A stretch of DNA of 16,517 bases, from the IMG/VR virus record IMGVR_UViG_3300043933_000129; one strand, written 5' to 3'. Under the pieces are notes generated by a model. It was not told the origin of the DNA and did not search any database. It was given only the letters and a program-made list of their open reading frames with translations. Position 1 is the first letter of the stretch, and every line of letters begins with the position of its first letter. A program made the position numbers and the translations under genes. This DNA is from a virus. Shown here piece by piece: positions 1,959 to 16,517 of the stretch.

Positions 1959-2720
1959 TTACCATAAAGTAAAGAAACAATCACTGCAATCTTCAATAAT
2001 CATCATATCAATATTGAGAAAAGTCTCTCTAAATTTCTTTAATAAACTGCTATAATTTTCTGTTCCCTGTTTGCCTTTTACTGTCTCAATATACTTATCA
2101 GTATTATTAATATTTTCTGTACCACTACCAGTTTTATTATCATTCCTTGTCAAAGTATCTGTACTTTCATTGCTAGTCGTATTATCTTCATTCACCTTAG
2201 TAACTGTAGTTAAAGGCACACTGTCAGCAATACCCTGTGTATCCATACTATTCTGCGGAGTATCACTAAATCTATTCAAGGTATCAGTATCATTTGTACT
2301 ACTACCTCTACTAACATTTTTGCTTGTACCACTATTAGTTTCTGTATTTTTACTTGTCCTATTACTTGTGCCGCTACCCTCTCTACTCCTAGTCAAATCA
2401 ACATCATAAAAAGGATTAAACTCAAGCAACTCACTTTTATACAACTGATTGTAATAAGGCATAATTTCATTGAGCTTAGCATTTAATGCTAGTTTCCACC
2501 TGCCTACAGTTTCATGTGCAATCTCTCTTGTATAATAATGCTTTAATATTTTCCTGCATAAAACCTGTCTATAGTTTTCATCAAAGATAGGAAAGTCAAA
2601 GTTAAAAACCTTATTCCAACACTTATCTAAAATACTATCAATATTATCTGCCCCATCACTCTCACTCAAGCCTGCACTATTTTCACAGATAAATCGCACC
2701 TCTGTTGTATACTTACTCAT
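1959..2720 (-). CDS. Lower collar protein (phi29 gp11-like position)
   Basis: The ORF-track start at 2732 is a GTG inside the RBS AAGGTGGTG. The ATG at 2720 (MSKYTTEVRF...) has correct spacing and overlaps the portal stop by 8 nt. The call rests on synteny immediately after the portal and on a central S/T/N-rich low-complexity stretch. Product is 253 aa. Confidence 0.6.
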   Translation of the reverse strand: MSKYTTEVRFICENSAGLSESDGADNIDSILDKCWNKVFNFDFPIFDENYRQVLCRKILKHYYTREIAHETVGRWKLALNAKLNEIMPYYNQLYKSELLEFNPFYDVDLTRSREGSGTSNRTSKNTETNSGTSKNVSRGSSTNDTDTLNRFSDTPQNSMDTQGIADSVPLTTVTKVNEDNTTSNESTDTLTRNDNKTGSGTENINNTDKYIETVKGKQGTENYSSLLKKFRETFLNIDMMIIEDCSDCFFTLW

Positions 2721-3609
2721 TATTTTCACCACCTTTACCTATATCAATTTCGTTACTTAAATTTGCTTCATTAGCGTTATAAGTATCAAGTACCTGCATG
2801 TCCTCTCTATAATCAACACTAATGTTTAATCCAAACATTTTGTTAATCTGCTCGCAAGCCTGCTGTCTCATAAACAGTCTCGAATATCTACTAGCAATCG
2901 TGCCACCTAAGTTTCTTTGTACTTCATCAGTTATCATTCTCTCTTTCTTCACAGTATTAACATTACTAATACCTAAATAAGTCAATGCTTCATTCCAGTA
3001 CTGCGTCTTTAACTCATACAACTTATCAGCAACATAAGGACTTGTAGTATCAAGAGTTTTAATACCGCTTAAATCTAAGTTCTTATCACCGAAAATGAAT
3101 GGTTCATTACCCATATATTGTGCATATAGATTTTTCATTACAAGTCTTTGATTTTCAGTGCATGTAACAATTTTAGGTGTTTTTTGCTGTATAACGTTTA
3201 CGTCAATAGTTCTCTGTATTTCATACAGTCTTTTGCTCATTTCCTGTACATCAAGTATACTGTTAGTGTGTAGCATATTATTAAAGATAATAACACTGTT
3301 ACTTGGGTCAAGTTTCATCTGATAACCATTTTGTGCAAACGCTGTTCGTGTAATAGGTATTCTGTAAACATCAAGTGCGCCACCTATCATAACTTGCAGA
3401 CCTAAATATCCCATGACTTCATCCTTAAAAAACACTGACATTCCATCATTGAAAAGAGCTAACTCTAAAAATCTTGCATCAACGGTATCAGGTAAGTTCT
3501 TCCAGTCATACATTGAAATACTTAATTCAGTAAGTCTATTAACATACTGTAAATATGTTCTTTGATTTTGTAAAAAGGCTTCAGTTTGTGCTTTTCTTCC
3601 TTTTTTCAT
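2713..3609 (-). CDS. Portal / upper collar connector protein (phi29 gp10 family)
   Basis: 298 aa (phi29 gp10 is about 309 aa). Motifs line up with my recollection of gp10: W.NLP.T, DVY, QQKTP, NLYAQYMGNEPFIF, SPYVADKL, WNEALTYLGI.N.N..KKERMITDEV, ACEQIN..FGLN. The RBS is GAGGTGA. Confidence 0.9.
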   Translation of the reverse strand: MKKGRKAQTEAFLQNQRTYLQYVNRLTELSISMYDWKNLPDTVDARFLELALFNDGMSVFFKDEVMGYLGLQVMIGGALDVYRIPITRTAFAQNGYQMKLDPSNSVIIFNNMLHTNSILDVQEMSKRLYEIQRTIDVNVIQQKTPKIVTCTENQRLVMKNLYAQYMGNEPFIFGDKNLDLSGIKTLDTTSPYVADKLYELKTQYWNEALTYLGISNVNTVKKERMITDEVQRNLGGTIASRYSRLFMRQQACEQINKMFGLNISVDYREDMQVLDTYNANEANLSNEIDIGKGGENNE

Positions 3610-3624
3610 TGTCTCACCTCTTTT

Positions 3625-5388
3625 CTAACTAGGACTGTTATTTAATGAATAGTTACCTATTTCACTAGCGTTTTTCCAAAATGTAATTCCATTGTCGAAA
3701 ATGTTTTTAATAGCTGTTATATCATTATTGCTACAATTGTTACCAACTAAATTACATTGTTGTGTTTTAGTATAAGTCCAATGTGGTCTTACATTTATAT
3801 TAGGTACTTTTACTTCATTTGTAGCATATCCAAACATAGTAAAATAATCGTCAATTATTTTTGCTATCTTAGGATGAACATGAGTGTTCATACTGTAGAA
3901 ATCAAGGAATGTGGTATCTAACATAACATTATTACCACCGCCACCTCTCGAACTAACTGGCAATGTTTTGGCTTGTTGCATCTGAATTAAACTATTTTTA
4001 ATATCAGAATAACCACTAACACCCATTCCTGCTTGCATAGCAGATTGAATAGGATTACTGCTCATATTTCCTTTGCCAATATATTGTGATGTCATAGGTC
4101 GCATTACATCATTCATATCAAATTGTCCATTTCCTGCGAGCTTAATTGATGTACTAGGATTTATTTGAGATGCACTTGGTTGATGAAATATCCCTCCACC
4201 CGTTGCTTCTGATAGACCTGCGCCTAGTGTAAGTTTCGCTAAACCGGTTGCAATATTACTTTGAACACTTACTTTATTTTGTGCCCACCATACCTTAAAC
4301 GTATCACTACTCCATGGTACAATTGGCATATTATCAAGTGTTAAGCTAAAATCAAAATTTATTTGCGTATTTCCTGCACTCGTTGTTTGTCCATTACTTG
4401 TTCCGTTATAGTTTAATGGGCTTGCCATATAATAGCCATTAATTACATCACTAAACACTTCAAAATTGCATTTATCATCATCAAATAACTCGTACCTATA
4501 ATCAATGCTATTACCACTACCATTACTTAGTGTTAGATAAGTATATGGATAACATAGTAATTTATGATTTTTAGGTACATATGTTCCAACTTTATTTGTT
4601 GGTTTATTTATCTGAAATGGTAATGGTTCATTTTGTTTTAATCCATAAATAGGTTTTTTATTTGTAGGCATTTGTCCAGTAATTGATAAATGTTTTATTA
4701 ATGTTTTGGGTGTTAATATAATATTAATTATTTGGTCTGTTTTTCCTTTATTATCGAGCGACATTATAAATTCTGCTAAACTGTGTTGGTCATTGTCACA
4801 ATATATTAGCATACATGGTGAATACATGCCATTATAATTGTATTGTAATTCTGAAATAGCACCTTGTTCATCAGCACCGCTTAATACTATTAAACACCAA
4901 TCATTAAAAATTCCGCTTTTAATAGGTTGGTCATACATCATTTGTCCGGTAGGAATATTTTCACCAACTAAACAATCATTTGTAGTATCTGTTGCATGAT
5001 GTTCTCTTTCAACAAAACTTTCTTTAAGAGTGCAATCAAAAAGAAACCATGTTTGCATAACATCAACAGTAAAATATACATTACTAACTTTGTCATTTAC
5101 ATATTCAATATTAGTAATAAAAGCGTAAAACCATTTTGTACTATAGTTAGTATTCTGAAACATCATGTAGTTACAATTATAAATGCTCTCTGCACTTGCA
5201 CTCATTCTTACAACACCCTGCTGTCCGCTAATTCTCTGAAAACTAGCTCTATCCATAGTCTTACTAACTTTACTATCAAAGTAACTTTTCTGTGCACTTC
5301 TGCTTGCAAAGTAGATAGTATCTTTATAACTGCTATCTATTGGTACACCACTGCATAATTTGATAACACTATTAGGTTGTATCTGCAT
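3625..5388 (-). CDS. Tail knob / distal tube protein (phi29 gp9 family)
   Basis: The track start at 5421 is a TTG. The ATG at 5388 follows AAAGGTGGTGAAGAT. Product is 587 aa (phi29 gp9 is 599 aa). The motif block YMMFQN.NYS.KWFYAFITN..., DVMQTW and ESFVEREH matches gp9 as I recall it. Confidence 0.88.
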   Translation of the reverse strand: MQIQPNSVIKLCSGVPIDSSYKDTIYFASRSAQKSYFDSKVSKTMDRASFQRISGQQGVVRMSASAESIYNCNYMMFQNTNYSTKWFYAFITNIEYVNDKVSNVYFTVDVMQTWFLFDCTLKESFVEREHHATDTTNDCLVGENIPTGQMMYDQPIKSGIFNDWCLIVLSGADEQGAISELQYNYNGMYSPCMLIYCDNDQHSLAEFIMSLDNKGKTDQIINIILTPKTLIKHLSITGQMPTNKKPIYGLKQNEPLPFQINKPTNKVGTYVPKNHKLLCYPYTYLTLSNGSGNSIDYRYELFDDDKCNFEVFSDVINGYYMASPLNYNGTSNGQTTSAGNTQINFDFSLTLDNMPIVPWSSDTFKVWWAQNKVSVQSNIATGLAKLTLGAGLSEATGGGIFHQPSASQINPSTSIKLAGNGQFDMNDVMRPMTSQYIGKGNMSSNPIQSAMQAGMGVSGYSDIKNSLIQMQQAKTLPVSSRGGGGNNVMLDTTFLDFYSMNTHVHPKIAKIIDDYFTMFGYATNEVKVPNINVRPHWTYTKTQQCNLVGNNCSNNDITAIKNIFDNGITFWKNASEIGNYSLNNSPS

Positions 5389-8648: not shown

Positions 8649-8677
8649 ATTATATCATATTGCTTGAAATTTTGCAA
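8649..8677 (-). promoter_or_regulatory. Promoter of the lysis + structural (late) operon
   Basis: On the minus strand this reads TTGCAA (8677-8672), a 17-nt spacer, then TGATATAAT (extended -10; hexamer at 8654-8649). The predicted TSS is near 8642, upstream of the holin RBS. Confidence 0.7.
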
Positions 8678-8692
8678 TATATATGCTATAAT
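8664..8692 (+). promoter_or_regulatory. Promoter of the packaging ATPase gene
   Basis: TTGAAA (8664-8669), a 17-nt spacer, then TGCTATAAT (extended -10; hexamer at 8687-8692). The predicted TSS is near 8699, and the ATG is at 8738. Confidence 0.7.
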
Positions 8693-8737: not shown

Positions 8738-9778
8738 ATGAGCGAAAATAAATACTATGACGGAACTAAATTATTGTCAATGAAAGATATAAATGGATTA
8801 AAGCCTGAGTTGTTTTTATGCACTACTAATAGAAGTGGTGGTAAAACAACATATTTTGGTAGATTATTAATCAATAGATTTTTAAAATATAATAAAAAAT
8901 TCTGCTTAATTTATAGGTACAATTATGAGCTTGATGATGTATGTGATAAGTTCTTTAAAGATTTACAAACATTGTTCTTTAGAAATTATACAATGGAAAG
9001 TGAACGTTGTGCAAGTGGTATTTATCATAGTTTGTTTTTAAATGAACAGCATTGTGGTTATGCTATTAGTTTAAACAGTGCAGACCAGTTGAAAAATTAT
9101 AGTCACTTACTTAGCGACACAGATAGCATGTTATTCGATGAATTTCAGAGCGAAACTAACCACTATTGCAATGGTGAAATAAGAAAGTTTATTAGTGTGC
9201 ATACGAGTATAGCAAGAGGTCACGGAAAGCAGTCAAGGTATCTTCCTGTTTATATGTTAAGTAATGCTGTTAGTATTATCAATCCATATTATGTCGAGTT
9301 GGGAATATCTGAAAGACTAAACAGTGAAACTAATTTCTTAAAAGGTGATGGATTTGTACTGGAAAGTGGTTTCATAGAAACAGCAAGTAAAGCACAAAAA
9401 GAGAGTGGTTTCAATAGAGCATTTAAGAATAATCAGTATGTCGCTTATTCAAGTGAAAATGTGTACTTAAATGATAACACTGCCTTTATTGATACACCAG
9501 TAGGAAAAGGAAAATATATTGCAACACTAAGATATATGGGGCACGATTATGCTGTAAAACAATACAGTGAACAAGGTTACTTATATATTGATGATAAAGC
9601 TGACAGTACCTTTAGAAATAAAATAAGTGTCACTGTTAATGACCATGATATTAATTATGTTATGCTAAAACAGAATGATTTGTTTATCAGTCAGTTAAAA
9701 TATTATTTTGAAAAAGGTTGTTTTAGATTTAAGAACCTTAAATGCAAAGAAGTTTTATTTAAAACTATCAGTTATTAG
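8738..9778 (+). CDS. DNA encapsidation (packaging) ATPase (phi29 gp16 family)
   Basis: 346 aa (phi29 gp16 is 332 aa). Walker A is NRSGGKTT and Walker B is SMLFDEF. The motifs NRFLKY..F..IYRY..EL and YMLSNAVSIINPYY match gp16 as I recall it. It is the only plus-strand gene. Confidence 0.9.
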   Translation: MSENKYYDGTKLLSMKDINGLKPELFLCTTNRSGGKTTYFGRLLINRFLKYNKKFCLIYRYNYELDDVCDKFFKDLQTLFFRNYTMESERCASGIYHSLFLNEQHCGYAISLNSADQLKNYSHLLSDTDSMLFDEFQSETNHYCNGEIRKFISVHTSIARGHGKQSRYLPVYMLSNAVSIINPYYVELGISERLNSETNFLKGDGFVLESGFIETASKAQKESGFNRAFKNNQYVAYSSENVYLNDNTAFIDTPVGKGKYIATLRYMGHDYAVKQYSEQGYLYIDDKADSTFRNKISVTVNDHDINYVMLKQNDLFISQLKYYFEKGCFRFKNLKCKEVLFKTISY

Positions 9779-9891
9779 ATATCTGCTGTTGTATGTTCAC
9801 TTGATACTGCTAGGTAGCACGTTTGAAAGATAACGCTAGTATGTATTGTCGTAAATGCTGTGCGCTTGTGTTCTGCAATAGTTATAGATAT
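9779..9891 (+). ncRNA. Candidate structured RNA (pRNA-like three-way junction) in the ATPase 3' UTR
   Basis: 113 nt with no ORF lie between the TAG (9776-9778) and the terminator. The hand fold gives these elements:
- closing helix 9779-9793/9874-9891 (15 bp, 3 G-U, 3-nt bulge);
- arm 9802-9813/9836-9848, a GUAGCA bulge, and hairpin 9820-9835;
- a second hairpin at 9850-9864.
No energy calculation was done. Confidence 0.35.
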
Positions 9892-9929
9892 AGAAAAGAC
9901 AGGAGTTTTTTTGCTCCTGCCTTTTTGTT
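9892..9929. terminator. Bidirectional rho-independent terminator between the convergent ATPase and early/replication transcripts
   Basis: The stem CAGGAG (9900-9905) / CTCCTG (9914-9919) is flanked by an A-rich run upstream (9892-9899) and CTTTTTGTTTTATTTT downstream. This gives a U-tract after the stem on both strands. Confidence 0.65.
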
Positions 9930-10175
9930 TTATTTTGTGTAGGCTTCTATAATATAATCTTCAATGCAATTGCTTAATTCTGATATTATGTCTTTTATTG
10001 AAATACAAAAATCAATTTCTTTCTTTAATGTATATTTTTTATAATTAATATCAAAAGTTAAAGATATTATATGTCTATCGCCTATTGTTATTATTTCACT
10101 TTTAAAAAATATACAATATTTTTGAGATAAAATATCAGTTAATAATTCTACAAATTTATTATAATTTTCTTCCAT
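9930..10175 (-). CDS. Hypothetical protein (81 aa), last gene of the replication operon
   Basis: The ORF follows the RBS AAGGAG. It is AT-rich and I recognise no motif. It weakly resembles the 77-aa neighbour (shared IKDI-containing C-terminal helix). Confidence 0.6.
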   Translation of the reverse strand: MEENYNKFVELLTDILSQKYCIFFKSEIITIGDRHIISLTFDINYKKYTLKKEIDFCISIKDIISELSNCIEDYIIEAYTK

Positions 10176-16410: not shown

Positions 16411-16506
16411 ACGGTACCACGCTGACGTGCTAACGCTGTACCACTGCAACGCGTCACCAGTTTACCACTGTGAAGTGCATGGGGTGTACCGAAAATCTCG
16501 ACGTTC
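16411..16506. repeat. Degenerate 24-bp tandem repeat x4 with an invariant TACC core, running into the right ITR
   Basis: GTACCAC is at 16414 and 16438, TTACCAC at 16462 and GTACCGA at 16486, so the spacing is exactly 24, 24 and 24 bp. Units 1 and 3 share 13/16 positions after the core start (TACCAC..TGA.GTGC). Confidence 0.85.
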
Positions 16507-16517
16507 GAAACCACCCC
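16485..16517. repeat. Right inverted terminal repeat
   Basis: Exact reverse complement of nt 1-33. Confidence 0.95.

Follow-up and report, generated by a model that had tools for sequence, protein, structure and literature searches.

The window analysed here is the whole 16,517-bp stretch of IMG/VR virus record IMGVR_UViG_3300043933_000129, which represents a complete linear genome of the phi29-like type. Its sole plus-strand gene encodes a gp16-type DNA-packaging ATPase. The stop codon of that gene (9776-9778) and a terminator-like hairpin are separated by 121 nucleotides (nt) that hold no credible open reading frame (ORF), only a mechanical, overlapping one of 41 amino acids. A preliminary description of this DNA had drawn attention to the non-coding gap and folded it by hand into a candidate resembling the prohead RNA (pRNA) of Bacillus phage phi29. 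The gap is as described, with the ATPase gene ending at 9778 and the hairpin (9900-9919) followed by a T-run, and comparison with relatives places in it a three-way junction RNA composed of the following parts.

9779-9891, plus strand: the whole prohead-RNA-like three-way junction RNA, ~113 nt (covariance model R1, 119.6 bits, E = 4.5e-26; the only match in the window).
9779-9803, plus strand: A helix, 5' strand, consisting of segments 9779-9784, 9786-9792 and 9798-9800 and of G9803, with internal loops between them.
9804-9813, plus strand: C helix, 5' strand, with double changes in 8 of 9 pairs.
9814-9819, plus strand: 5'-side bulge GUAGCA, 6 nt, with no unpaired base opposite; counterpart of the phi29 CE ('right-hand') loop.
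9820-9835, plus strand: E hairpin, with a 4-bp stem (9820-9823/9832-9835) and the 8-nt loop UGAAAGAU; compensatory changes occur in 3 of 3 model pairs, with 100% pairing.
9836-9846, plus strand: C helix, 3' strand, the partner of 9804-9813 (same pair counts), with U9842 bulged.
9847-9849, plus strand: C-D junction linker UGU, U-rich, placed by the alignments; the phi29 counterpart is UUU.
9850-9864, plus strand: D hairpin, with a 4-bp stem (9850-9853/9861-9864; 4 of 4 pairs compensatory) and the 7-nt loop AAUGCUG; counterpart of the phi29 D ('left-hand') loop.
9865-9891, plus strand: A helix, 3' strand, consisting of C9865, 9868-9870, 9875-9881 and 9886-9891, with a UUAU bulge at 9882-9885.

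Relatives were fetched solely by similarity of the ATPase protein, their ATPases being 55-97% identical to the query in use, and fall into three sets of loci: 80 from IMG/VR obtained with the ATPase of the window, 77 obtained with that of MT835854, and 80 obtained with that of CS229P1. In 80 of the 80 loci of the first set, UAUC opens directly past the ATPase stop codon and GAUAU closes the element ~112 nt further on. Covariance model R1, built from 46 sequences of this first set, was then run on the other two sets, where it found exactly one match per locus in 156 of 157 cases (76 of 77 and 80 of 80), with E-values from 1e-6 to 1e-25; all 156 matches lie on the ATPase strand, directly past the ATPase gene. 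Altogether the element is represented by 165 distinct sequences forming 62 clusters at 93% identity, and, unless another alignment is named, the pair counts given for it use the 62 cluster representatives in a model-fitted alignment. The clade of MT835854 (loci L088-L130, L153 and L083; for example L113, 2530-2661) carries an insertion of ~23 nt in the D arm, which adds a second small hairpin; its RNA is 132 nt long and retains the GCA/UGC portion of the bulge-loop pairing described below.

RNAalifold, applied to a plain MAFFT alignment with no structure fitting, returned a three-way junction; compensatory double changes are seen in 23 of its 32 pairs. In the model-fitted alignment, 94% of pair cells are canonical and both sides have changed in 32 of 37 pairs. 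The covariation score is 0.641, compared with 0.150 for column shuffles (0 of 500 reach the observed value) and 0.04-0.09 when partners are slid by 1-3 columns. The preliminary description had proposed testing relatives for compensatory changes downstream of the ATPase gene, and these are present in all helices as well as in the bulge-loop pairing. Variation is unevenly spread along the A helix: every pair of the inner segments (helices 2-4) carries compensatory changes, while the outermost helix hardly varies in sequence and its outer end is nearly invariant (5' UAUCU, 3' AGAUAU), which would fit a site of protein contact or of processing. The E-hairpin loop UGAAAGAU is likewise conserved in the alignments. 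G-U is a common pair type at several positions, which assigns the fold to the plus strand, in agreement with what had been argued from the single sequence; the minus strand folds worse than its own shuffles (z = +1.25).

Most of the hand fold survives this comparison. The closing helix is real, with 9779-9784/9886-9891 and 9786-9792/9875-9881 both backed by MAFFT/RNAalifold and by the pair counts; its extent had been underestimated, since a further upper A-helix segment (9798-9800/9868-9870) had been missed. The first arm stands at 9804-9813/9836-9846 with U9842 bulged, but its two proposed outermost pairs, 9802/9848 and 9803/9847, are unsupported, and covariation instead pairs G9803 with C9865, the innermost pair of the A helix. 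The 6-nt bulge at 9814-9819 and the 4-bp hairpin with an 8-nt loop that follows it are backed by alignment and pair counts, and the second arm was correctly drawn (9850-9853/9861-9864 with a 7-nt loop). Junction linkers in the window are 0 nt between A and C, UGU between C and D, and 0 nt between D and A. The order A-C-bulge-E-D-A, which had been likened to that of phi29, holds in the 62 representatives and matches the Rfam consensus element by element.

Covariation is also seen outside the helices. The preliminary description had noticed that AGCA in the bulge (9816-9819) is complementary to UGCU in the D loop (9856-9859). This complementarity is present, covaries, and extends to 5 pairs between U9815-A9819 and U9856-G9860 (UAGCA/UGCUG). 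The bulge-loop pairing is absent from the model behind the alignment, and thus the alignment is not biased toward it. Each of the 5 pairs has changed on both sides, and pairing holds in 84.7% of cells; none of 500 shuffles comes up to the observed values, and the signal collapses in slid controls. More than 12 complementary versions, each of 3-5 bp, occur across lineages, among them AGCA/UGCU, UAGC/GCUA, AAGC/GCUU, UGAC/GUCA, CUGUA/UACAG, AUGCA/UGCGU, UGCA/UGCA, ACGC/GCGU, CGCA/UGCG, GGCA/UGCC, AGUA/UACU, ACAC/GUGU, UAACA/UGUUA, CCU(A)/(U)AGG and AGG/CCU (a clean reversal of C-G into G-C). Since covariation is found in the C, E and D helices as well, the bulge-loop pairing is not a nested alternative to them, and would be either a pseudoknot or a contact between molecules.

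The closest known system is the pRNA of phi29 (domain I, RF00044), also found in PZA, B103, Nf, M2, SF5, GA-1, DLc1 and other Bacillus phages. In phi29, the pRNA forms a ring on the prohead connector through loop-to-loop pairing between copies, and its A helix holds the ATPase. Both RNAs are three-way junctions with paired ends and with the order A, C, 5'-side bulge, E, D, A; in both, the bulge is confined to the 5' side, its pairing bases immediately precede an E stem of 4 bp, and bulge and D loop are complementary over 3-5 nt that covary though their sequences differ among phages. The dimensions compare as follows. The A-C linker is 1 nt in phi29 and 0 nt here, and the D-A linker 0 nt in both; the C helix is 5+4 bp in phi29 and 10 bp here, such that the C arm has 9-10 bp in both; the bulge is 9 nt in phi29 and 6 nt here. 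The E hairpin has a 4-bp stem with a 6-nt loop in phi29, compared with 4 bp and 8 nt in the window (8-10 nt across the family), and the C-D linker, UUU in phi29 and UGU here, is 3 nt long and U-rich in both. The D hairpin has a 6-bp stem and a 5-nt loop in phi29, as against 4 bp and 7 nt here. Arm lengths of 10 bp (C) and 4 bp (D) resemble the 9 and 6 bp of phi29, and the total lengths are 113 and ~118 nt.

The two systems differ in where the RNA is encoded. In phi29 the pRNA (201-318) is encoded close to the left end of the genome, downstream of early promoter A1, whereas the element described here (9779-9891 of 16517) lies mid-genome, immediately 3' of the ATPase gene, with which it is apparently co-transcribed. 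The 54-nt domain II of phi29 has no counterpart in the window, where the terminator stands instead. The hosts differ as well, being Bacillus for the phages with phi29 pRNA and gut Clostridia (Lachnospiraceae) here. As judged by these comparisons, the element is a strongly conserved, structured RNA built on the architecture that defines prohead RNA, in a new sequence family, a new genomic position and a new host group. A more distant analogy is offered by the ROOL and GOLLD RNAs (reviewed in PMC12990946), which are likewise structured non-coding RNAs whose loops pair between copies to form closed multimers; these are much larger, fold in unrelated ways and are not known to be linked to any packaging motor, and the likeness is an analogy only.

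The other features of the window that bear on this RNA are its transcription signals and the genes of its presumed partners.

8664-8692, plus strand: promoter-like site, TTGAAA-17-TATAAT extended by TG, lying before the ATPase gene (11 of 12 positions agree with the consensus; a consensus match only).
8738-9778, plus strand: gp16-type DNA-packaging ATPase gene, 346 amino acids (Pfam Podovirus_Gp16, 103 bits; PHROG terminase match).
9900-9927, plus strand: predicted intrinsic terminator, with a 7-bp G+C-rich stem (9900-9919), a U-run and a flanking A-run, beginning 8 nt past the RNA.
2713-3609, minus strand: gp10-type connector (portal) gene (Pfam Phage_connector, 211 bits; match to phi29 gp10, 1H5W, E = 3e-50).

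The genome carries the set of motor and replication features that is characteristic of pRNA-bearing phages and shared with phi29, namely a gp16-type ATPase with neither a nuclease nor a small terminase, a gp10-type connector, a protein-primed polymerase and terminal inverted repeats on a small linear genome. The repeats, 43 nt long and 95% complementary (1-43 and 16475-16517), stand at both ends and mark the window as complete, a linear genome of the protein-primed type. Across its full length the ATPase aligns with phi29 gp16 (7JQQ; E = 7e-21, ~25% identity), including the C-terminal domain (6V1W). The connector, presumed to be the docking partner of the RNA, has a basic N-terminus (MKKGRKAQ) in the same place as MARKRS in phi29 gp10, the RKR segment of which binds pRNA. 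The genome also encodes a phi29-type major capsid protein with a Big_2 domain (Pfam Phi29_MCP) and a protein-primed family-B DNA polymerase (Pfam DNA_pol_B_2). Among named relatives, it stands closest to the Clostridium symbiosum phages CS229P1-3 and to two human faecal contigs that carry no annotation.

The simplest reading of the transcription signals is a single unit that would run from the promoter-like site at 8664-8692 through the ATPase gene and the RNA to the terminator. No further promoter-like site occurs on the plus strand from 8990 up to the RNA. A dedicated promoter for the RNA inside the 3' end of the ATPase gene was considered and rejected, as none stands out in the window. The terminator is probably bidirectional, since an A-run flanks its stem as well as the U-run. 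Downstream hairpins of this kind are a constant companion of the RNA: in 62 of 62 representatives, a hairpin (-14 to -28 kcal/mol) flanked by an A-run and a T-run begins 0-6 nt past it. At its other end, the RNA starts 0-7 nt past the ATPase stop codon in most genomes. A few relatives have extra DNA between the stop codon and the RNA (238-250 nt in L164, L201 and L157; 41-54 nt in L082, L196 and L165), which in some of them holds TATAAT-like boxes or inverted repeats, such that the RNA may have its own promoter there. In L079, L082, L222, L232, L233 and others, the terminator past the RNA contains a nested small hairpin, with the common sequence CGAACTTAGTTCG in its loop.

Candidates of similar architecture were found in other phage clades. 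At locus L163 (878-1010, plus strand), where the ATPase is 48% identical and R1 missed the element, an RNA of the same layout follows the ATPase gene, with GACA in the bulge, UGUC in the D loop and an A helix that runs straight into a U-run. In the clade of Clostridium phage CI55P2 (OP172760, 4712-4819, plus strand, locus L085; also L245-L257), which comprises phages of Clostridium innocuum relatives and whose ATPase is 24% identical, a candidate three-way junction RNA lies just upstream of the ATPase gene. RNAalifold finds compensatory changes in 9 of 40 of its pairs among 9 sequences. It has a 6-nt 5'-side bulge (AUACCA), a 7-nt D loop containing UGGUA (pairing UACCA/UGGUA), and a 23-bp A helix followed by a U-run, with a promoter-like TTTACA-17-TACAAT in front, and looks like a separate transcription unit. 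In the C. perfringens Guelinviridae (phiZP2, L086, ~16560-16680, minus strand; phiCP7R; CPS2; L258-L260), a G+C-rich candidate lies between a promoter-like site and the late genes. In phiZP2 it comprises the C helix CGCAGAC/GUUUGCG, the bulge CGCCA, the E hairpin GGG-GUGGAA-CCC and the D hairpin GGG-UUGGCU-CCC; GCCA of the bulge is complementary to UGGC of the D loop, and two compensatory changes are seen. This candidate is 97-100% conserved in 15 of 17 matching C. perfringens phage records and 88.5% in CPS2.

The CI55P2-type and C. perfringens candidates share with the RNA of the window an A helix, a C helix, a 5-6-nt 5'-side bulge, a 3-5-bp E hairpin, a short D hairpin and complementary loops; unlike it, they lie upstream of the ATPase gene or head the late operon. 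The evidence for them is much thinner, with 9 and 4 sequences, too few for bulge-loop covariation, and the models of the present RNA score them at only 12-13 bits, which is not significant. With filters off, R1 and a second model, R2, fall on the hand-found candidates in L163, CI55P2 and CI644P4, at 12-15 bits and again without significance. Within the genome of Clostridium phage CI644P4, the best R2 match (15 bits, not significant; L087, 15092-15213, minus strand) lies in a non-coding right end with a ~20-bp closing helix; as a pRNA-like element this region was rejected, no convincing bulge-loop pair being apparent by eye. A Python descriptor written for this architecture picks up the true elements of the window, L163, CI55P2 and phi29, but cannot stand alone because it returns ~100 false matches per genome. 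Applied to the intergenic gaps of Staphylococcus phage P68, it came up empty in the 158-nt gap that precedes the ATPase gene and gave no convincing match in the others, and in Curtobacterium phage Squall it gave only weak candidates, none of them convincing.

Several of these Clostridium phi29-like clades also share a perfect palindrome of 14-16 bp, (T)GTTTCACGTGAAAC(A), which is not present in the window. Copies occur in L001 (4024-4039), L068 (three), L085 (4451), L087 (10340), L086 (six, at 5204, 8231, 8256, 10330, 12205 and 12230) and many of L088-L130. They lie mostly between genes and, in some clades, between the ATPase stop codon and the RNA or in the loop of the post-RNA terminator. 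The palindrome may be an operator for a shared regulator.

We propose, with a probability of roughly 0.78, that this segment is the gene of a divergent prohead RNA, which would form the RNA ring in a DNA-packaging motor of the phi29 type. Several observations weigh against this proposal. The preliminary description had suggested two checks that did not bear its candidate out. The minimum free energy of 9779-9891 is -27.6 kcal/mol, no better than that of dinucleotide shuffles (-25.9 +/- 2.8 kcal/mol; z = -0.59, not significant), and the conserved fold, at -18.6 kcal/mol on the window sequence, lies 9 kcal/mol above the minimum. The minimum-energy structure differs from the conserved fold in joining bulge and D loop in an ordinary nested helix. 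We regard the energy test as uninformative rather than refuting, as the case rests on the comparative evidence, which is very strong. The second check was the Rfam pRNA model. RF00044 gave no match in the window at its gathering score of 100 bits, nor any at E <= 10 in 9600-10100, nor in 14 diverse relatives at E <= 1, while the same library detects phi29 pRNA at 145 bits. Conversely, R1 and R2 with filters off do not detect phi29 pRNA. With no match in either direction, homology is not demonstrable, and the resemblance may have arisen by convergence. The A helix of phi29 pRNA has a 5'-side CCA bulge that is needed for packaging; no conserved CCA is found here, and the A helix instead has internal loops and the 3'-side UUAU bulge. 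The 0-7-nt gap between stop codon and RNA leaves no space for an intergenic promoter of its own, and the RNA would therefore be predicted to need processing. Finally, pairing within a molecule and pairing between molecules look the same at the level of sequence. By analogy with phi29, we infer that the loop pairing is between molecules, that the RNA exists as a discrete transcript, that it binds the connector and the ATPase, and that packaging requires it.

In the main alternative the element acts in cis in the 3' untranslated region (UTR) of the ATPase mRNA, as a compact fold closed by an intramolecular pseudoknot that protects against 3' exonucleases or tunes ATPase expression and has no role in the motor. 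The element adjoins the stop codon, and in all relatives a terminator comes directly after it, which makes it physically part of the ATPase transcript, and a pseudoknot would leave the same covariation as a contact between copies. Protection, however, needs neither a junction topology identical to that of phi29, nor an invariant helix end, nor a conserved E loop. The CI55P2-clade RNA lies upstream of the ATPase gene and resembles a separate transcription unit, and the C. perfringens candidate is not adjacent to that gene at all. Furthermore, the bulge sits 10 bp up the C arm whereas the D arm has 4 bp, and in phi29, from what is known of that system, a comparable mismatch likewise goes with pairing between molecules. 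We therefore consider a purely cis-acting role unlikely.

Less probable still is a trans-acting small RNA released from the ATPase 3' UTR, serving as a regulator of phage or host genes or as a decoy for host defence, unrelated to packaging. Small RNAs derived from 3' UTRs are common in bacteria in general, and a conserved structured RNA in a lytic phage could be one of them. The bulge and the D loop, which vary most among its single-stranded parts, nevertheless change together rather than staying constant for a target, and the linkage to motor genes recurs in three clades. No Rfam family, small-RNA and ribozyme families included, matches the window at gathering or E-value thresholds; a sub-threshold match to ar35, at 25.5 bits against a gathering score of 45, was rejected as driven by the terminator hairpin. 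A hammerhead ribozyme was also rejected, with no Rfam ribozyme match and with junction strands (0 nt, UGU and 0 nt) that do not carry the conserved core CUGANGA ... GAAA. That the segment acts as a single-stranded DNA structure, for instance in the strand displaced during protein-primed replication, or is a functionless chance fold, strikes us as barely credible. Replication of the phi29 type does expose single strands, and the folding energy of the single sequence is indistinguishable from that of shuffles, but covariation in the 62 representatives is far above shuffled and slid controls, the many G-U pair types make the fold specific to one strand, and the element lies exactly between stop codon and terminator on the sense strand.

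If the RNA is indeed a prohead RNA, its working might be pictured as follows. The ATPase gene and the RNA would be co-transcribed from the promoter at ~8664-8692 and terminated at 9900-9927, and the 113-nt three-way junction would be cut from the 3' end of the mRNA or persist as its stable 3' part. Copies would then join head to tail, bulge UAGCA of one with D-loop UGCUG of the next, into a ring that encircles the gp10-type connector where it protrudes from the empty prohead. In such a ring the C/E/D end would face the connector and capsid, and the long A helix, with its UAUCU/AGAUA end, would point outward and dock the gp16-type ATPase, which would pump the protein-capped linear genome into the head.

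The statement in the preliminary description that pRNAs are described only in Bacillus phages and near a genome end agrees with the literature. A 2024 review calls pRNA unique to phi29 and its Bacillus relatives, and a 2025 survey with Infernal covariance models added 12 new pRNAs, those named being from Bacillus phages. No pRNA was identified in a study of C. perfringens podoviruses, which brings up pRNA solely as an ATPase property. We found no report of a pRNA outside Bacillus phages, although papers beyond our search may exist. We would tentatively suggest, at somewhat less than even odds, that prohead RNA is an ancestral and general part of phi29-type motors that has diverged past sequence recognition, lying beside motor or late genes in the clades that infect Clostridium and here made from the 3' end of the ATPase mRNA. 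On this view RNA and ATPase would be made in a fixed ratio, and could assemble before being separated.

In conclusion, the proposed prohead RNA would have consequences beyond this genome. The 165 natural variants allow one to ask which features of such an RNA matter, including the invariant helix end, the E loop and the junction, and an experimental system is at hand in the relative CS229P1, which is in culture and whose host (Clostridium symbiosum DA229) is known. RNA nanotechnology may also find building blocks in the new three-way junctions and loop pairs. The 3' UTR of the ATPase gene would be a new expression route for an RNA of this kind, and the origin of pRNA would become testable. A second pRNA family, unrelated in sequence and from phages of gut Clostridia, would suggest that an RNA ring more widely serves phi29-like phages in docking the gp16-type ATPase, whose vestigial C-terminal domain does not itself hold the connector. 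For ~40 years pRNA has been regarded as confined to phi29 and related Bacillus phages; if our reading is correct, that restriction would fall.

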